Positions 41,460 through 58,736 of a stretch of 64,000 bases of DNA are shown piece after piece. The stretch lies in assembly GCA_029856125.1 (NCBI GenBank), contig JAHQWJ010000120.1, forward strand, positions 256,758 through 320,757, read 5' to 3'. Position 1 is the first letter of the stretch. Every line of letters begins with the position of its first letter. Both the position numbers and the translations under genes were made by a program. Source of the DNA: Promethearchaeia archaeon. Its GTDB lineage: Archaea > Asgardarchaeota > Lokiarchaeia > Sigyniarchaeales > SOKP01. A model generated the notes under the pieces. The model was not told the DNA's origin. It was given only the letters and a program-made list of their open reading frames with translations, and did no database searches.

Positions 41460-42749
41460 TTAGATTTTTTGCGTTTCTACTTCTATTACCTCTTGTGTAG
41501 GCAATACTTCTATTTCTGGTTCTTGTGGACGATCGAGATATCTTATTTTAGTGAAAAACCATAAAATAATCGGATTTACGATTCCTATTAAAGCACTAGC
41601 AAGTAAGAGATTCACGACACCCATTAAACCCGCAAGAGGTCCTACTAATAACGCACCAATAGGAGCAATTGCCATAGATACTGTGTGATCAATAGACATA
41701 ACGCGCCCTATTTTGTCGGATGGGACAACAGTTTGCAAAATAGTTAAGTATGTCGCAACAGTTATTGGAAAGATAATCGCTCCAAGAAACCCACCTATCA
41801 TCATCATGTAGAAATTTTGATACGGTGCTAAAATGATAAGTACGTAAAACGTGAAAAAGACCATCTCTCCAATTAAATTGACCTTAATCTTGTTCTTCCA
41901 CTCCTTCTTTATTGAAGTAATTAAGGAGCCAATCACATTCCCTACTTGGATTGAACCAAAAAGGAAAGCTAAATGAAACACAGATCCATCGTGTATGATA
42001 TTTATGAAGTAGGGCCACAGCACTCCGAAGGGCCTAAATATAAAGTTAAAAATCATCGCAAAAATGATCATACTTAAAAGACCCGGAATCGCCTTTACAA
42101 TTTTAAATCCATCCTTAAATTCCCTCATGAAAGATGTTTTCTCAGCAACTCTGGTTTCCTTAGCATTGAAAGGAATTTTTATCAAGAACAATGGTACTAC
42201 GGCTATTAGGAATGTTGCGCCGTCAATGAGAAAGATATAGGTAATTGGGAATAACCCTAATAGTAAAGCGGATAAAATCGGGCCGACCATGAAAATTAAG
42301 CCAGAAAACAAGAAGTTTCCTCCGTTAACTCTGCTTATTTTATCTTTGGGAACCATAGAAGGAAGTATCGCGTGGAATGTAGGGACTTGAAACGCAAAGA
42401 GAATGTTTCGCATTGTATGTATAATCAATATCATCCAAATGGGTGTGAATCCAGTAAAAAAAATTAGGAACAAACCAAATGTCAATACTGCTTGGAACAA
42501 ATCTACGGTAAATATTATTGTCTTGCGATTTAGCCTATCAGAAAGTACTCCCGCAAACGGAGTAACGATAACTTGAGGGAGAAAAATCAAGAATGTCGCT
42601 AATGAGAGATAAAAAACGCTCTGTGTCTCAATTGTAATCCACCAAGTAATAACAAAACCGATAATTCCTGAACCTAATAGCGAAAATTGCTGTCCGGCCA
42701 TAAAATAAAGGTAATGCCTAAACGATTTTTTTGTTGGTAATTCTTCCAT
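41460..42749 (-). CDS. MFS transporter (DHA3/MefA-like)
   Basis: GQQFSLLGS, AGVLSDRLNRK, ~12 TM helices. Confidence 0.9.
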   Translation of the reverse strand: MEELPTKKSFRHYLYFMAGQQFSLLGSGIIGFVITWWITIETQSVFYLSLATFLIFLPQVIVTPFAGVLSDRLNRKTIIFTVDLFQAVLTFGLFLIFFTGFTPIWMILIIHTMRNILFAFQVPTFHAILPSMVPKDKISRVNGGNFLFSGLIFMVGPILSALLLGLFPITYIFLIDGATFLIAVVPLFLIKIPFNAKETRVAEKTSFMREFKDGFKIVKAIPGLLSMIIFAMIFNFIFRPFGVLWPYFINIIHDGSVFHLAFLFGSIQVGNVIGSLITSIKKEWKNKIKVNLIGEMVFFTFYVLIILAPYQNFYMMMIGGFLGAIIFPITVATYLTILQTVVPSDKIGRVMSIDHTVSMAIAPIGALLVGPLAGLMGVVNLLLASALIGIVNPIILWFFTKIRYLDRPQEPEIEVLPTQEVIEVETQKI

Positions 42750-43053
42750 TTTTTTATTAAACCTTCAATTCTATATTCTTACAACTTAAAACCTTTTTCT
42801 TTAATACTTGATACGAAAGGTTCAATTAATAGTTTCGAATCGTGAAGTTTACGCATAGTTCGAACTACCGTAGAAAATGATTAGTATCATCATCATCAAA
42901 ATCAATCGGGAATAGTGAAAACTGTTTCAGTTTAAAATTGGGTAATCTACACAAAAGAAATAAGAAACAGAATGAACTAGTATTTCTCATAATGGAGCCA
43001 GAAGATATGAAGATATCCGAGGAATTTATTGAGAATAAAATTTACCTCTATTC

Positions 43054-52592: not shown

Positions 52593-53681
52593 ATGAAAAT
52601 GGAATGGGAGAATAGCGATCGAGAACTTAAACCTCGTAATATCTATCAAAATGTCTTAAATAGAAATATTAACATAAGAGAAGCTTTTAGGTCATTAATC
52701 AATCTTTCACTTTATCATCTTAATCAGGAAATTAAAGCACAAGCTATTAAAATTCGAATTGATTTAGCTAAATCAAATTTAGTCTGGGAATTTGCACGAA
52801 GCAATAATAATATCGAATTATATCTTAATAATGGAGTTTACCCTTCTGATGCTCCAGTTTTAGCCTTATTAGAAATATTAATAGATTGTGAAATCTTAGG
52901 TTACGAAACTAATAATGAAGGCTATATAACTTTTTTGCCTCTTTTTGGTTCAGATAATTCTTGTGTAGGTGTTTTCCCAGAACAAATATGTGATTTAAAA
53001 TTTTTGTATGTACTGTATTTTTCACAACAGAATATTAGATCCATACCAAAGTGCGTTAAGAACTTAACCTATTTGAAAAAGCTTGATTTAAGCTATAATA
53101 ATTTAGAGAAGGTTCCGAACGAGATCCAAGAACTTAAGAATTTGACTTTTTTAGATTTAAGTTTTAATAAAATACAAGAACTCCCTACTTTCGTAAAAGA
53201 ACTTACACATCTTAACCAGCTATATTTAGCCGACGAGGAGTTAAATGTGCCCCACAGAAATGTGTTTGATTGCCTGAATGTCGCTGATCTCGAAGAAAAT
53301 CTTAGCTTAAAAGCATTGTCTGAGTTATTTGCGAAATTAGAAAAAAAGGAGCAAACTGAACGAAAAGAGCTTACTAAGAAATTTAGCGAACAAAAAGAAT
53401 TATCTGCAATTATTTACCCTCCGAGAGAAATCTTAAACACCCTTCTAAATAAACCCCGAAATTTTGAATATGTCATGCTTTGGATGCTGGGTAACAATTT
53501 CGCTTGTGGATGGCGCGATTTCAAGTCGGATCCTGTAAATATAAGTCAAGCAACTTTGTCGAAATATCTCAGCATACTCATCGCAAACAATTATGCGTAC
53601 AGGGTAAGTAAAGGATATTACATAATAACGGAATCAGGAAGAAGAAGATTAAACAAAATAGAAAGTAGTATTAAAAAATAA
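52593..53681 (+). CDS. LRR protein with C-terminal winged-helix DNA-binding domain
   Basis: LRRs (LKKLDLSYNNLEKVP, LTFLDLSFNKIQELP); C-terminal LWML...ISQATLSKYLSIL...YIITESGR MarR-like wHTH. Confidence 0.85.
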   Translation: MKMEWENSDRELKPRNIYQNVLNRNINIREAFRSLINLSLYHLNQEIKAQAIKIRIDLAKSNLVWEFARSNNNIELYLNNGVYPSDAPVLALLEILIDCEILGYETNNEGYITFLPLFGSDNSCVGVFPEQICDLKFLYVLYFSQQNIRSIPKCVKNLTYLKKLDLSYNNLEKVPNEIQELKNLTFLDLSFNKIQELPTFVKELTHLNQLYLADEELNVPHRNVFDCLNVADLEENLSLKALSELFAKLEKKEQTERKELTKKFSEQKELSAIIYPPREILNTLLNKPRNFEYVMLWMLGNNFACGWRDFKSDPVNISQATLSKYLSILIANNYAYRVSKGYYIITESGRRRLNKIESSIKK

Positions 53682-53701
53682 AGAATTAAAAAAAATCTAA
53701 T

Positions 53702-53770
53702 TTAAAATCTTAATGTGGCAAAATTATAACCCGTTGGGTTTAATATTGTTTTGCATCCTTTTCTTTTCAT
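53702..53770 (-). CDS. Micro-ORF C, 22 aa: MKRKGCKTILNPTGYNFATLRF
   Basis: CGAGGTAAAAAAAT-ATG; stop TAA followed by a T-tract; leader repeated in the neighbouring units. Confidence 0.7.
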   Translation of the reverse strand: MKRKGCKTILNPTGYNFATLRF

Positions 53771-53868
53771 ATTTTTTTACCTCGTTTTTTAATTTGGTTT
53801 TGTTTTGTGTATTATTTGTTGTTAAATTGCGAATTTTTAATTATTATAAAAAAATGTGGTAATTACAA

Positions 53869-53940
53869 TTACATGTCAAAACGGTAAGGAATATATCCCG
53901 CGTTTTTGATGATTATCGTTCTTTTCTCGTTTTTTTCCAT
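53869..53940 (-). CDS. Micro-ORF B, 23 aa: MEKNEKRTIIIKNAGYIPYRFDM
   Basis: CGAGGTAAAAAAAG-ATG; AAAACAAAACCAAA leader shared with unit C; TAA then T-tract. Confidence 0.7.
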   Translation of the reverse strand: MEKNEKRTIIIKNAGYIPYRFDM

Positions 53941-54015
53941 CTTTTTTTACCTCGCTTTTTTTTGGTTTTGTTTTAGTTTTGATTTTTGGCTTAAAATTAA
54001 TAAAAAAATATATTC

Positions 54016-54096
54016 TTAAAATTTACAGATTAAGTTTGCTTGATTAAAACCTACAACTAATCTAACATCTTCTTCTTGCTTTTCTTTTCTTCTCAT
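54016..54096 (-). CDS. Micro-ORF A, 26 aa: MRRKEKQEEDVRLVVGFNQANLICKF
   Basis: AGAGGT plus A-run before ATG; TAA then T-tract. Confidence 0.7.
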   Translation of the reverse strand: MRRKEKQEEDVRLVVGFNQANLICKF

Positions 54097-54161
54097 TTTT
54101 TTTTTACCTCTTTTCTGTTCTTTTTTTTTCCTGGTTTTTAAAATTTAAAAAAATTAATTGA

Positions 54162-54449
54162 TTAGAAATTTATCGTGGAATTGCGAGCTCCAAGAAGCTT
54201 TGCGTCTACTTGCCCCTTATACTTGTTTATGCCGACTTTCTCTTCCGAAATCCTCGCGTTATATTTAAATTTATTGAACACTCTCAAAAGCTTGTTCGAT
54301 AGTGAACTTGATTCAACCTTCGCTTCTTTGGTGGTATTAACCCGCACCTGAGGCTCTAACACCTCAGGTGCTAGGTTTTGGGCTATGGTTTGGCATTGGC
54401 ATTCCAATTGGTCTTTACAAATGGTTTTTTTTTCTATTGCTTGTGCCAT
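54162..54449 (-). CDS. Small hypothetical protein heading the micro-ORF array
   Basis: 95 aa; A-rich leader; contains VGINK and ends in ...INF; divergent from the wHTH-TPR gene. Confidence 0.7.
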   Translation of the reverse strand: MAQAIEKKTICKDQLECQCQTIAQNLAPEVLEPQVRVNTTKEAKVESSSLSNKLLRVFNKFKYNARISEEKVGINKYKGQVDAKLLGARNSTINF

Positions 54450-54540
54450 TTTTTTTCACTTTTTTTCTTTTTTTTGTTCGAGTTCTTTTTTTTATTGTTA
54501 ATTTTATTAACTTCGGGTTCTTTATTTAGTTCTTGTTTAA

Positions 54541-54565
54541 GAAGTTCGAACGAACTTCGAAGTTC
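54541..54565. promoter_or_regulatory. Overlapping palindromes, candidate operator
   Basis: GAAGTTCG-AA-CGAACTTC (54541-54558) overlaps the perfect palindrome GAACTTCGAAGTTC (54552-54565), inside the 162-bp divergent intergenic region. Confidence 0.6.
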
Positions 54566-54611
54566 AGTGCGAATAACAAACCTTAAATAGCTACGAAACC
54601 GATCTATAACT

Positions 54612-57572
54612 ATGAGTGAGGTAAAATTTCCACCTGAAGGTATAATTACACCTATGAAAATCAACAAAGATTTTGAGCATATTATACTCTGGATGCTCTA
54701 TAATAATGATGTTTGTTTATGGTCTGATTTTAAATCGGATCCTGTAAATATAAGTCAAGCAACTTTGTCGAAATATCTTTCAATCTTGATTAGTAATGGT
54801 TTTATTGAGAAGGAGATGAAGGGTAAGTATAAAATTACTCCTGAAGGTCGAAAACAATATGCCGATCTTCAAGTTAAAAATGCACTTGAAAAAACATTAA
54901 ATTATCCACCTGAAACAATAACAAATAAGAGAAATTACGATGATTGGATTCTATGGATGCTATACAATAACCACCATTGTAAATGGTCAGACTTCCTTGA
55001 GGAGCCGCTTAGAATCAACCAGTCTTCATTGTCGAAGAATTTGAATCTATTACTTGAGAAAGGTTATGTTGAAAAGGATAACCGTGAGTATCAGATTACT
55101 AATTCAGGTGAATTAGAATACTTCAATATGTTAAAGAAATACGATTTGGATCGCCAGTCGATATTAAACGAAGAGACTAAGAGAGTTGAGGTAGTTACAG
55201 ACAAGGTAGCGGAGTTTTTTAACGAATTCGATATCGAAGATAACGGGATAAAATACCGATTTTTGAATATGGTGCTTAGGTTAGATTATACTAAAGTTGA
55301 AAGCACCTTGTCTGACGAGGTAGATTTTGATAAAATTTTGCTTTATCTCGCTATTAATCACCCGGATCAATACCCTAAATACATCACGGCCAAAGATTTT
55401 GCTTTAGAATACGATATAAAGCTAACGACACTGACCTTCTTTATCGAGAAGATCGTTGAAGATAATATCTATCCGATACGCTTCTTTAAATTAAATGTAG
55501 AGGATAAGTACAATTACTACATTCAAGCAGAAGAGCGGTTAGAAAAAATGCTCAATGTAATTATCGAGGATTACATTAGGAAGTTTACATATTTGAGTAA
55601 ATTCCAGAACGCCAGTGGAGTTCAATACCAGATACCCAATATCAACGAGTTACTTGAAGATATAACTAGCGATATGTGTAGTAATTTATTCCACGACGAT
55701 TTGAAACCGGCTCTAAAAAAATTCCTTCCTGAGTATATCGAACATTTGGCATATAAATTTGAGAGCGAGAAAAGTTTGATTAACCACACGGATAAAATAA
55801 AAGGGATCGCCTTTCAAAATGTATTCGAAGTAATTCAGAGTTTTGGAACATCGGAGACGGCGAGTACGGTAAACAAACCTATAGACAACGAATCCTATTA
55901 TTTTTTGCATAATAGGATATTTGATACATTGGACATAATTTATTTCTCGAAAATAGATTTTATTCGCATGGTTGAGTTTAAAAAGGCGTATTTTTCCAAG
56001 AATGCTGAATTTTTAGCAATGATAGAGAAAAAGTTAGCGAAAGGTAACCTATCGAAAGTAAACGATTTGCTTAATGAGAATCTTAAGAATTTAAACGACG
56101 TTGAACTGATGATCCTTAAGGATTTAACTTTAACATATAACGGAGAATTAGAAGAATCGCTCGAATTAACTAAAGAAATCATTGAGAAATATCCTGACGA
56201 ATATGTAGGATATCTTTTTCAATCAGTTACGTATTTCTTGATGGGAAGATTTAAGGATGCGTTGGATGTTATTGATTTAGGATTGAACATGTCATTTAAT
56301 ATCTTGTTAATATCTCAAAAAACGCAAGTTCTCATTAATTACGATCACGATAAAGCCCAAGAACTCATTGATGAGATGATAAAAGAATATCCAGATAATT
56401 TTGCCTTAAATCGCACAAAATTCCTAGTAGGTATGACGGATTGTTGTACAAAAATTTATGACGAACCTTTTGAACTGATAAATTCACTTATAGAATTGAA
56501 TCCTGACGATTCAGACCTCTCAATAATGAAAGCGGTATTATACACGGTAACCCATAAGTATAAGGAAGCAAAAAACTGGATTAAGCAGACTGTTGAATTC
56601 AATTTACTTAAAGGTAATCCACGAGTTGACACTGCTGCGTATTTAATATTGTCATTCTCATATGTAGCTAGAGGTAAATTTGAAAAAGCTTTAGATATTG
56701 TCAGTAAGGTTAAATTCCACTATCCAAACCATCCGCTTTCTCATATTATTACTGGATTAGTTCACGGATTCAATATAGTCTACAATTTTGATGAGGGTAA
56801 AGTAAACAAAGAACTCTTTAAGAAAGAGTTCCAGAAAGCAAAAACAATGGAGCAAAGCAAGAAGAAGTTGTCCAGGTATTATCAACTGGAAAGTTATATA
56901 TTAAATGAAACAGATGGTTTTGACGAAGCAATAAAAGCAATTGATAAAGCAATTGAATTAAGTCCGGAACACTTCGATATCTATAGTACAAAAGCTCACA
57001 TATTCCTAACTTATGACGATAAGCAGAGCGAGATATTAGAGTTCTACGATGAATTATCTGAAAAATTTCCTCAGAATGATAAAGAAATTCGCCAGATGAA
57101 GTCGTTCTCTTATTATGTGTTGGGAAAAATAGAAGAAGGAGTTAAATTTCTTAAAGAAAGTATTAAAATTTACCCCGATGCGGTAGCTATGTTAAACAAC
57201 CTATCTGTATTTCTAGGTAGTTTAGGAAAAATCGATGAAGCTTTGGAGGTAATTGAAAAAACAATTGAAATAGAACCGCGTGACGCGAATTTATTCGATA
57301 CTTACGGTGAAATTCTGATGTTTGCAGAGAAATACGAAGCGGCAATAGAAAAATTTTATCAAGCATTAGAGATGAATCCAACCGGATGGTTTGCATTTCA
57401 TACATTCATAAAACTTTCAAAATGTTATAAAGGTCTAGAAATGCTTGAAGAGGCAGCTACTTGCTACGATAAAGCAAAGATTTTAACAGAAAAAGTTCTA
57501 CCAGGAAAAAGAAAGGTGTATTTAGATCAATTAGACGAGAGTGATGCGTATTTTTCCCGTGTTCCATTATAG
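54612..57572 (+). CDS. Tandem winged-helix + TPR-repeat putative transcription regulator
   Basis: Two N-terminal MarR-like wHTH repeats (ILWMLYNN..C.WSDF...ISQATLSKYL / INQSSLSKNL); C-terminal half made of TPRs (AIKAIDKAIELSP, ALEVIEKTIEIEP, AIEKFYQALEMNP). Confidence 0.9.
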   Translation: MSEVKFPPEGIITPMKINKDFEHIILWMLYNNDVCLWSDFKSDPVNISQATLSKYLSILISNGFIEKEMKGKYKITPEGRKQYADLQVKNALEKTLNYPPETITNKRNYDDWILWMLYNNHHCKWSDFLEEPLRINQSSLSKNLNLLLEKGYVEKDNREYQITNSGELEYFNMLKKYDLDRQSILNEETKRVEVVTDKVAEFFNEFDIEDNGIKYRFLNMVLRLDYTKVESTLSDEVDFDKILLYLAINHPDQYPKYITAKDFALEYDIKLTTLTFFIEKIVEDNIYPIRFFKLNVEDKYNYYIQAEERLEKMLNVIIEDYIRKFTYLSKFQNASGVQYQIPNINELLEDITSDMCSNLFHDDLKPALKKFLPEYIEHLAYKFESEKSLINHTDKIKGIAFQNVFEVIQSFGTSETASTVNKPIDNESYYFLHNRIFDTLDIIYFSKIDFIRMVEFKKAYFSKNAEFLAMIEKKLAKGNLSKVNDLLNENLKNLNDVELMILKDLTLTYNGELEESLELTKEIIEKYPDEYVGYLFQSVTYFLMGRFKDALDVIDLGLNMSFNILLISQKTQVLINYDHDKAQELIDEMIKEYPDNFALNRTKFLVGMTDCCTKIYDEPFELINSLIELNPDDSDLSIMKAVLYTVTHKYKEAKNWIKQTVEFNLLKGNPRVDTAAYLILSFSYVARGKFEKALDIVSKVKFHYPNHPLSHIITGLVHGFNIVYNFDEGKVNKELFKKEFQKAKTMEQSKKKLSRYYQLESYILNETDGFDEAIKAIDKAIELSPEHFDIYSTKAHIFLTYDDKQSEILEFYDELSEKFPQNDKEIRQMKSFSYYVLGKIEEGVKFLKESIKIYPDAVAMLNNLSVFLGSLGKIDEALEVIEKTIEIEPRDANLFDTYGEILMFAEKYEAAIEKFYQALEMNPTGWFAFHTFIKLSKCYKGLEMLEEAATCYDKAKILTEKVLPGKRKVYLDQLDESDAYFSRVPL

Positions 57573-57605: not shown

Positions 57606-58736
57606 TTATTTATTATGTTCTTTAACCAGTTTTACCAATTCTGCTTTCCTATAAGAGGACAACACTTTAATATCGTTATTAATACAGTATTCTTTCAGTT
57701 GTTTTACCGTCCAAGTCTTATAATTTGATTCTGGTTCAATAAATTCTTGGGAGAGCCCTTTTTTAACGAGGCTTATAATTTGTGCTTTTCTATAAGATGC
57801 TGGCACTTTTATATTGTTCTCTTGACAATAAATTTTTAACTGTTTAACAGTCCAGGTATTGTAATCTAGTCCTTTGTCTTTTTCAACCGTCTGTTCTACA
57901 ATTTTGGGTGCTTCGAGTTTTTGGAGAATTTCTATTCCTTCAATAGTTTTAGAGGTATCATCAACATAAATTCTTAAAGTGCGATCAGTTAGTTCAATTA
58001 TTCCCTCTGGCAGCGAGTTCACCGGTCCCCACTCGACTTCTTCTACTTCTTTGCCAAATATTTTAGCTTTTTTTATTGCAGCGCCAAAAATCTGAAAATT
58101 TCCTAAGATTAGGTTTTGTCTTTTTAGATCGGCTGGAATGGTATTATTCACTATTTTATCAATTATTTCCCTTTTGTCAGTTTTGGGTGATTTAATTGCC
58201 TTTTTATGTTCTTCTTTTGTTCTTTTCGTCACAGTTTGAGGAACTGTTTGAGAAGCTTTTTTTTCTTTGAAAGAAGGAGGAGGCCCCTTCCAACTGTGAA
58301 CTCTCTTTCCGTCTAATTCTAGAGTTGTTTTTTCAGGTGTAGAATGAATTTCCTTGAACTCTTGTGAATTTCGATCAAGAAGTTCTGGTAATTCACCTGT
58401 TGTAAAATCGAATGCTCTTAAGAACTCGTTAGGTTCGTCTCCTTGGTCTACTGAGATAATTTTGCATCGATGAAAATGCGCATCCACAATCAGATCGTTT
58501 TGTAATTCAGCAGCAACTCGAGAAGCTATAAATTTTTTCCTGACGTGTGAATTGACACCTTTCCAGATGTAGATTCTCCTTAGGCCCTCCTTGACAATTA
58601 TTAACACTTGGTTAGAATCCAATATATTTTGACCGTTATTCAACCGAAAAGTATCTTCAGAAATATCTAACTTTACTTTTTCTCCTGTACTTTCTAGTCC
58701 GAAGATCATAAAGTTATCATAAATTTCAGACATCAT
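57606..58736 (-). CDS. Gelsolin-domain protein with two C-terminal SAP/HeH/Rho-N-like repeats
   Basis: LDSNQVLII...RIYIWKG..S..KKFIA...VDQGDEPNEFL gelsolin domain; twin repeats Y.TWTVKQLK.YC..N.IKV.(A/S)SYRKA. Confidence 0.85.
   Translation of the reverse strand: MMSEIYDNFMIFGLESTGEKVKLDISEDTFRLNNGQNILDSNQVLIIVKEGLRRIYIWKGVNSHVRKKFIASRVAAELQNDLIVDAHFHRCKIISVDQGDEPNEFLRAFDFTTGELPELLDRNSQEFKEIHSTPEKTTLELDGKRVHSWKGPPPSFKEKKASQTVPQTVTKRTKEEHKKAIKSPKTDKREIIDKIVNNTIPADLKRQNLILGNFQIFGAAIKKAKIFGKEVEEVEWGPVNSLPEGIIELTDRTLRIYVDDTSKTIEGIEILQKLEAPKIVEQTVEKDKGLDYNTWTVKQLKIYCQENNIKVPASYRKAQIISLVKKGLSQEFIEPESNYKTWTVKQLKEYCINNDIKVLSSYRKAELVKLVKEHNK

Follow-up and report, generated by a model that had tools for sequence, protein, structure and literature searches.

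Comparison across genomes indicates that four small open reading frames (ORFs) in the window, the 64,000-nucleotide stretch of DNA from a Promethearchaeia archaeon analysed here, are protein-coding genes under purifying selection; all are encoded on one strand, face the gene of a wHTH-TPR protein, and have an operator in common with an MFS transporter gene. We consider them a real and undescribed microprotein regulon whose products have a putative role as ligands. Our literature searches turned up neither an archaeal transcription circuit with peptide ligands nor a description of this regulator/micro-gene module, which was found in one Asgard family only. Our preferred, still tentative view is that a lineage-specific archaeal transcription circuit has this array as its output, and probably also as its feedback arm.

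Architecture of the micro-ORF array

Three micro-ORFs lie on the minus strand, where a sequence-only reading of the window had placed them: class A (54016-54096; 26 aa; motif [GE]-FNP...[RK][FY]-end), class B (53869-53940; 23 aa; motif IIIxN-[AG]-GY-x-P) and class C (53702-53770; 22 aa; motif ILNPTGY...R[FY]-end). All three stop with TAA, and each is preceded by an A/C-rich leader and followed by a T7-T8 tract within 15-21 nt of the stop. A conserved Shine-Dalgarno (SD) GAGGT stands 8-9 nt before every ATG (minus strand; 54106-54110 in unit A, 53949-53953 in unit B and 53779-53783 in unit C), but the pure A-run up to the ATG that had been ascribed to the units is present in unit 1 only. The leaders are alike, as had been claimed, with units 2 and 3 sharing 47 nt at 87% identity (E 8e-8); the coding parts do diverge between the three units, yet each unit constitutes a class of its own that is kept across genomes. 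No more than 21 ORFs across the 3.7-Mb genome satisfy the same rule, and 7 of these are members of the array's family, so the array is more than a product of chance.

The first gene of the operon is ORF0 (54162-54449, minus strand; 95 aa). It had been tied to the micro-ORFs through a shared GIN, but its homologues mostly read C-I-N, GIN is not kept and the motif does not fit; ORF0 instead belongs with the array as a member of the same operon. Array and ORF0 together would form a single operon, divergent from the regulator gene and behind one conserved operator and TATA-like box.

T7 tracts on the minus strand provide candidate internal terminators 3' of ORF0 (54147-54153), unit A (54002-54008) and unit B (53848-53854), and T8 plus T6 tracts 3' of unit C (53673-53695, minus strand) are the likely terminator of the operon. 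The mean longest T-run after the four ORFs is 7.4-8.0, equal between units, compared with a genome average of 4.3; the last terminator alone is more T-rich than the others and is the most T-rich in orthologues. Intra-operon termination is common in archaea and leaky internal termination has precedent, with U-tracts likewise found between co-oriented genes of one operon (PMC10450193). Expression may be graded by partial termination at the T-tracts, as the sequence-only reading had supposed; this would have archaeal precedent and fit a single promoter, although it explains possible graded expression only and not the genes themselves.

Conservation and selection

Frame, SD and motif are all conserved in relatives, and their loss is what the sequence-only reading had named as grounds for giving up its view of the micro-ORFs as real, selected genes. 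The micro-ORFs are conserved in frame at about 20 orthologous loci, and at the DNA level the array region is 66-78% identical to its counterparts in about ten genomes of its genus and 11 contigs from metagenomes. Homologues are labelled as Promethearchaeota or Lokiarchaeota MAGs, including Loki_b31 and Loki_b32, and some titles give other Asgard groups. Each of the classes A, B and C has been retained together with its T-tract, SD, start and stop. When DNA profiles were searched without regard to reading frame, about 55 homologous segments were returned, of which two are decayed, one by loss of the start codon and the other by loss of the start together with a frameshift; simulated neutral survival per tip is 0.13-0.43. 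In a codon model, omega is 0.40 for A, 0.53 for B, 0.48 for C and 0.72 for ORF0, and 0.13 for the regulator. A likelihood ratio test against an omega of 1 rejects neutrality for all four small ORFs (p 2.5e-6 for A, 0.007 for B, 0.003 for C and 5e-4 for ORF0), and in a cruder star-tree simulation on 6 tips only class C reached significance.

The low complexity of the sequence, omega values just moderately below 1 and the outcome of the star-tree simulation are what might be expected of chance ORFs in AT-rich repeated spacer DNA, or of a non-coding RNA. We regard this explanation as very improbable: the likelihood ratio test speaks against it for every one of the four ORFs, frame, SD, start and stop are kept in all homologous segments but the two decayed ones, and the array region has no match in Rfam.

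Duplication followed by diversification, also proposed earlier, is plausible. Besides the similar leaders, the number of micro-ORFs per array varies from 0 to 3, ORF0 is absent from some arrays, one genome (G007) carries a second complete A-B-C array, and peptides that bridge the classes occur in other clades; direct pairwise similarity between A, B and C is however marginal (p 0.05-0.12). Class B, the most widespread type, is present twice more in the genome. With a profile derived from other clades, B comes first among the 22,037 ORFs searched (E 1.5e-4 to 6e-3), and A and C are missed. A common ancestor of the three classes is likely, if weakly shown by these comparisons. Unit A is skipped in one contig of a public run. 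At another locus (L226, G114:C3) the first divergent ORF, of 27 aa, has an ORF0-like start and a class-B-like end and apparently arose when a deletion fused two units. A degenerate DNA pattern for class B proved too noisy, often matching controls; its recurrent extra match is presumably an Alba-like gene. Six loci of genus g28 (L126, L128, L130, L133, L143 and L145) encode a conserved protein of 105-120 aa with an Arg/Asn-rich insertion, which we also take to be Alba-like.

A wHTH-TPR regulator faces the array

The regulator gene (54612-57572, plus strand) encodes 986 aa and is divergent from ORF0, with 162 bp between them. According to Pfam, an AlphaFold model (mean pLDDT 84) and fold searches, the protein has two winged helices at its N-terminus, then a third domain of winged-helix-like fold and a flexible linker, followed by a TPR solenoid of about 550 residues (about residues 430-983), and Pfam TPR families score above cut-off. 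Fold searches with the solenoid returned generic TPRs, with APC/C, OGT and designed TPRs scoring at least as high as PlcR and Rap: PlcR reaches Z 16.1 (rmsd 4.3, 199 aligned) and RapI Z 15.9 (rmsd 8.3, 319 aligned), compared with up to Z 18.6 for unrelated TPRs. No Rgg model is among the regulator's NCBIfam matches.

Searches with the 986-aa query found the regulator family in 103 of the 134 genomes of the window's family and in one genome of one other family, and not in 25 others of the class. TPR-bearing homologues are of about 630, 830 or 990 aa. A divergent micro-ORF lies within 1 kb at 65 of the 130 TPR-bearing regulator loci with enough flank, compared with 11 of 2437 ordinary genes (0.45%), and a micro-ORF or a gene of ORF0 size accompanies 91 of the 130; since kin are not independent, these counts are descriptive and overstate the co-occurrence. 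The loci with micro-ORFs are spread across the regulator tree (a quick tree of the first 420 residues), a pattern that shared descent explains, so we do not claim co-evolution of peptide and receptor. Micro-ORFs are absent from the TPR-less 440-aa regulator clade, which as one clade counts as one event. Adjacent micro-ORFs are also absent from two TPR-bearing clades, one linked to histidine kinases (9 loci) and one of 635-aa regulators linked to membrane proteins (10 loci).

Two neighbouring genes deserve description. An LRR protein with a C-terminal winged helix is encoded convergently with the array (52593-53681, plus strand); this winged helix is 54% identical to the regulator's first one, and over the recognition helix the DNA of the two genes matches perfectly for 44 nt. 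Genes of this kind also flank arrays in two other genomes (G014 and G004). The LRR protein is possibly a competitor for the operator, or the match is possibly a trace of gene conversion. Convergent with the regulator gene is one for a gelsolin-like domain fused to two HeH/SAP/Rho_N-like motifs (57606-58736, minus strand).

Operator, promoters and candidate regulon

Most of 79 non-redundant regulator intergenic regions contain GAACTT/GAAGTT half-sites, spaced at about 11 bp and followed by a TATA-like box toward the small genes. In the window, this candidate operator and TATA-like box of the peptide operon lie at 54522-54563 (minus strand), with half-sites at a period of about 11 bp; the site is the best match in the genome to the motif derived from the 79 upstream regions, but it is itself part of the training set. 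Six sites in the genome reach at least 20 bits, as against 1-2 in shuffled sequences. The array contains no operator match, which is consistent with a single promoter. On the plus strand, a TATA-like box (54583-54589) precedes the ATG of the regulator by 22 nt in this clade, and the regulator mRNA is thus probably leaderless. A sigma-70 promoter scan of the region was discarded as irrelevant for archaea.

The second-best match, and the best outside the training set, is a copy of operator and TATA-like box at 42825-42866 (minus strand; 32 bits), 11 kb from the array in the same window and 117 nt before an MFS gene (41460-42749, minus strand) that we regard as a candidate member of the regulon. 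Its product scores above cut-off for Pfam MFS_1 and MFS_3 and below the curated cut-offs of TIGR00900 (223 vs 320 bits) and MefA (138 vs 675), so it is related to the DHA3/MefA models and not a member. The operator element recurs at 87-119 nt (15-38 bits) before the MFS gene in all evaluable homologues retrieved across the genus, while three MFS paralogues in the same genome lack it (-3.5 to 1.6 bits). In about ten genomes the MFS gene and the array share a contig, at a distance of 1-15 kb. Two MFS orthologues (L297 and L298, in G020 and G016) have in-frame stops and keep the operator. Further matches to operator plus TATA in the same genome precede a probably secreted 215-aa protein (C82:30862, 30 bits), a 279-aa protein (C129:5791, 25 bits) and a kinase-like two-gene operon (C77:3369, 16 bits), the last of which faces a regulator in other genomes.

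Some small genes stand alone. The window's own genome (G000) has two peptide pairs (C12:280-499 and C18:4312-4548) and one ORF0 (C105:470-715) far from any regulator. The variant operator that they share scores just 8-16 bits; the cassettes are conserved at fixed sites in at least 8 genomes, and in 7 genomes the C12 cassette immediately precedes an EF-2-like GTPase gene.

These arrangements bear on whether the micro-ORFs could be leader peptides acting in cis, with a ribosome stalled on the micro-ORF masking the U-tract so that transcription enters downstream genes. There is a U-tract within about 20 nt of each ORF, 22 arrays run into a same-strand gene within 350 nt, and intra-operon termination is, as noted, common in archaea (PMC10450193). 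Nevertheless, 42 of 64 arrays, the window's own included, have no such downstream gene, and the products therefore most likely act in trans and not as attenuators. The gene 3' of the window's array is convergent, the MFS gene has an operator and TATA box of its own, and the existence of stand-alone cassettes also argues against attenuation in cis, which we consider distinctly improbable.

Properties of the peptides and of ORF0

We collected 99 micro-peptides and 71 ORF0 proteins from 164 distinct regulator loci. The micro-peptides are cationic, with a mean net charge of +3. Their best 9-residue hydropathy averages 0.8 and reaches 2.0 in 3 of the 99, so by hydropathy they have neither a Sec signal or SHP-type hydrophobic profile nor a transmembrane helix like that of a type I toxin or small membrane protein. 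A terminal F or Y is found in 51 of the 99 micro-peptides and 47 of the 71 ORF0 proteins, compared with 11% of long ORFs, as expected if a C-terminus is read. The peptides, with an omega of 0.4-0.5, are evolving more rapidly than the regulator at 0.13, and they have clade-specific motifs. Three likenesses were pursued and dropped: mimicry of a longer host protein gave no match above reversed-sequence noise, PEX5, considered for a PTS1-like C-terminus, was not among the fold matches listed, and the penultimate Tyr of an HbYX C-terminus is missing. In five arrays (L166, L173, L226, L132 and L139) the peptides are followed by micro zinc-finger ORFs of 32-58 aa with two CxxC.

Proteins of the ORF0 family have 65-100 aa, with a disordered N-terminal half and one long C-terminal helix (model pLDDT 66). 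The family is confined to genera that have the regulator, occurring in 43 of 68 genomes of the window's family and in none of 232 genomes of the phylum's other families; it matches no Pfam family and gave no usable Atlas match, and its relatives among 1.8 billion representatives are all of the same size. A complex prediction of ORF0 with regulator residues 180-986 scored 0.00, with the fold of the partner uncertain, and speaks neither for nor against an interaction. One RNA run, available as assembled contigs only, contains a single 175-nt contig over ORF0 (54258-54432, depth 3), too weak to indicate transcription, and none over the micro-ORFs. A 10-bp G+C-rich hairpin lies within ORF0 at 54344-54371.

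Cationic, multicopy and variable peptides that are co-regulated with a DHA3/MefA-like efflux protein could also be bioactive peptides or precursors of RiPP type that the MFS protein exports and that antagonise other cells or signal to them. We think this improbable, as the peptides have no Sec-type core, a transporter gene is missing beside many arrays and stops interrupt two MFS orthologues; moreover, no modifying enzyme or peptidase gene recurs beside the arrays at the 164 loci (ORF starts within 2 kb), so the co-encoded maturation enzyme that defines a RiPP precursor cluster is missing within that range.

A putative feedback circuit

The reading that we find most economical, and adopt tentatively, is one of feedback, with the peptides acting on the TPR domain of their own regulator. 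The tandem winged helices would bind the repeated half-sites. In archaeal activators, operator placement just upstream of the TATA box points to activation. Because the half-sites sit in this position, the regulator would more likely be an activator of the peptide operon and may act as a repressor of its own leaderless transcript. ORF0, A, B and C would be carried on one transcript that terminates leakily at the U-tract behind each ORF. The unprocessed, basic, non-secretory peptides, built from a charged N-terminus, a short hydrophobic strand, an Asn/Gly/aromatic turn and an aromatic C-terminus, would then bind the TPR groove and tune the regulator's activity. Paralogous peptides may differ in affinity or sign, and the MFS protein may export either the peptides or an inducing compound.

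Such feedback is favoured by the conserved divergent layout of array and regulator, the frequency of micro-ORFs at TPR-bearing loci, their absence from the single TPR-less clade, the restriction of ORF0 to genera with the regulator, the aromatic C-termini, the faster evolution and clade-specific motifs of the peptides, and the operator before the MFS gene. Against it stand the two TPR-bearing clades without adjacent micro-ORFs, the cassettes kept far from any regulator, the up to four dissimilar products facing one regulator, and the generic character of a solenoid for which PlcR and Rap are not ahead in fold matches.

Several of these points would be accommodated if the regulator senses something else and the peptides are outputs of its regulon that act on other proteins, as the microproteins AcrZ and MgtS do in E. 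coli. Possible targets include the MFS transporter, the Rab-like GTPase or TPR proteins encoded after other arrays, and the translation machinery. The stand-alone cassettes at fixed sites, the TPR-bearing regulators without peptides and the presence of several different peptides at one locus would all suit such effectors, as would the next same-strand gene after the array, which encodes an MFS protein in 10 and a Rab-like small GTPase in 12 of 60 loci. However, no single candidate target goes with all arrays, while the regulator goes with most, and the transmembrane helix that typifies transporter modulators is missing from the peptides. As a reading, action on other regulon members comes close to feedback, although we judge it somewhat unlikely.

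Relation to known peptide-receptor systems

Firmicutes offer established examples of HTH-TPR receptors whose genes lie next to peptide genes (PMC10075063). The arrangement described here resembles that of RRNPP systems (Rgg/SHP, ComR/ComS, PlcR/PapR, NprR/NprX and PrgX) in combining a DNA-binding N-terminus with a TPR C-terminus and in placing a small peptide gene immediately next to the receptor gene, often in divergent orientation; the peptides span about 23 codons and have a basic N-terminus, and MFS genes are found at some Rgg loci as well (table in PMC7564271). Unlike in RRNPP systems, the archaeal receptors have winged helices and 630-990 aa instead of 250-500 aa, each is accompanied by one to four peptide genes, the peptides are hydrophilic without a Sec-type core, the promoters are of the archaeal TATA type, and PlcR and Rap score no better against the archaeal solenoid than generic TPRs. 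Set against the five criteria of PMC10075063, the module has propeptides within 10-100 aa (22-26 aa and 95 aa), receptor TPRs (Pfam and model) and adjacent receptor and peptide genes (the 162-bp divergent gap; 91 of 130 loci), but it fails on the secretion signal and, with 986 aa, on the receptor size of 250-500 aa, and we therefore do not file it as an RRNPP member; the logic that we tentatively propose would be RRNPP-like.

Peptides without a signal sequence are known for HTH-TPR receptors of the RopB clan (PMC10518010), so that lack of a signal is compatible with communication. The leaderless communication peptides (LCPs) of that clan are likewise encoded divergently from their receptor, but SIP and the S. 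salivarius LCP measure 8 aa and belong to a clan of Firmicutes, whereas the present ones are cationic, of 20-32 aa, and arranged in arrays with a helical protein of 65-100 aa; no test showed the two to be related in sequence. Eukaryotic TPR solenoids that read C-terminal tails (APC/C Cdc27-type, Tom70 and OGT) are the top fold matches of the solenoid; this is a generic TPR likeness at 10-20% identity, none of them is fused to winged helices, and we claim no homology.

By analogy with these systems, the module may be an archaeal counterpart of bacterial peptide-signalling switches. A bolder and improbable extension would be an independently evolved archaeal peptide communication, in which signal-less array peptides leave through the co-regulated MFS protein and are read by the TPR solenoids of wHTH regulators that are paralogues of one another. 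One Asgard family would then have quorum-type codes, specific to each clade, for the control of operons with Rab-like GTPases and kinases. Within that family the module is common, and in other clades it stands upstream of small GTPase operons. With synthesizable candidate ligands, a receptor, an operator and a transporter identified, peptide signalling in Asgard archaea becomes testable in vitro without culture, and even if the peptides are effectors and not ligands, they constitute a family of more than 100 distinct microproteins with a defined regulon.
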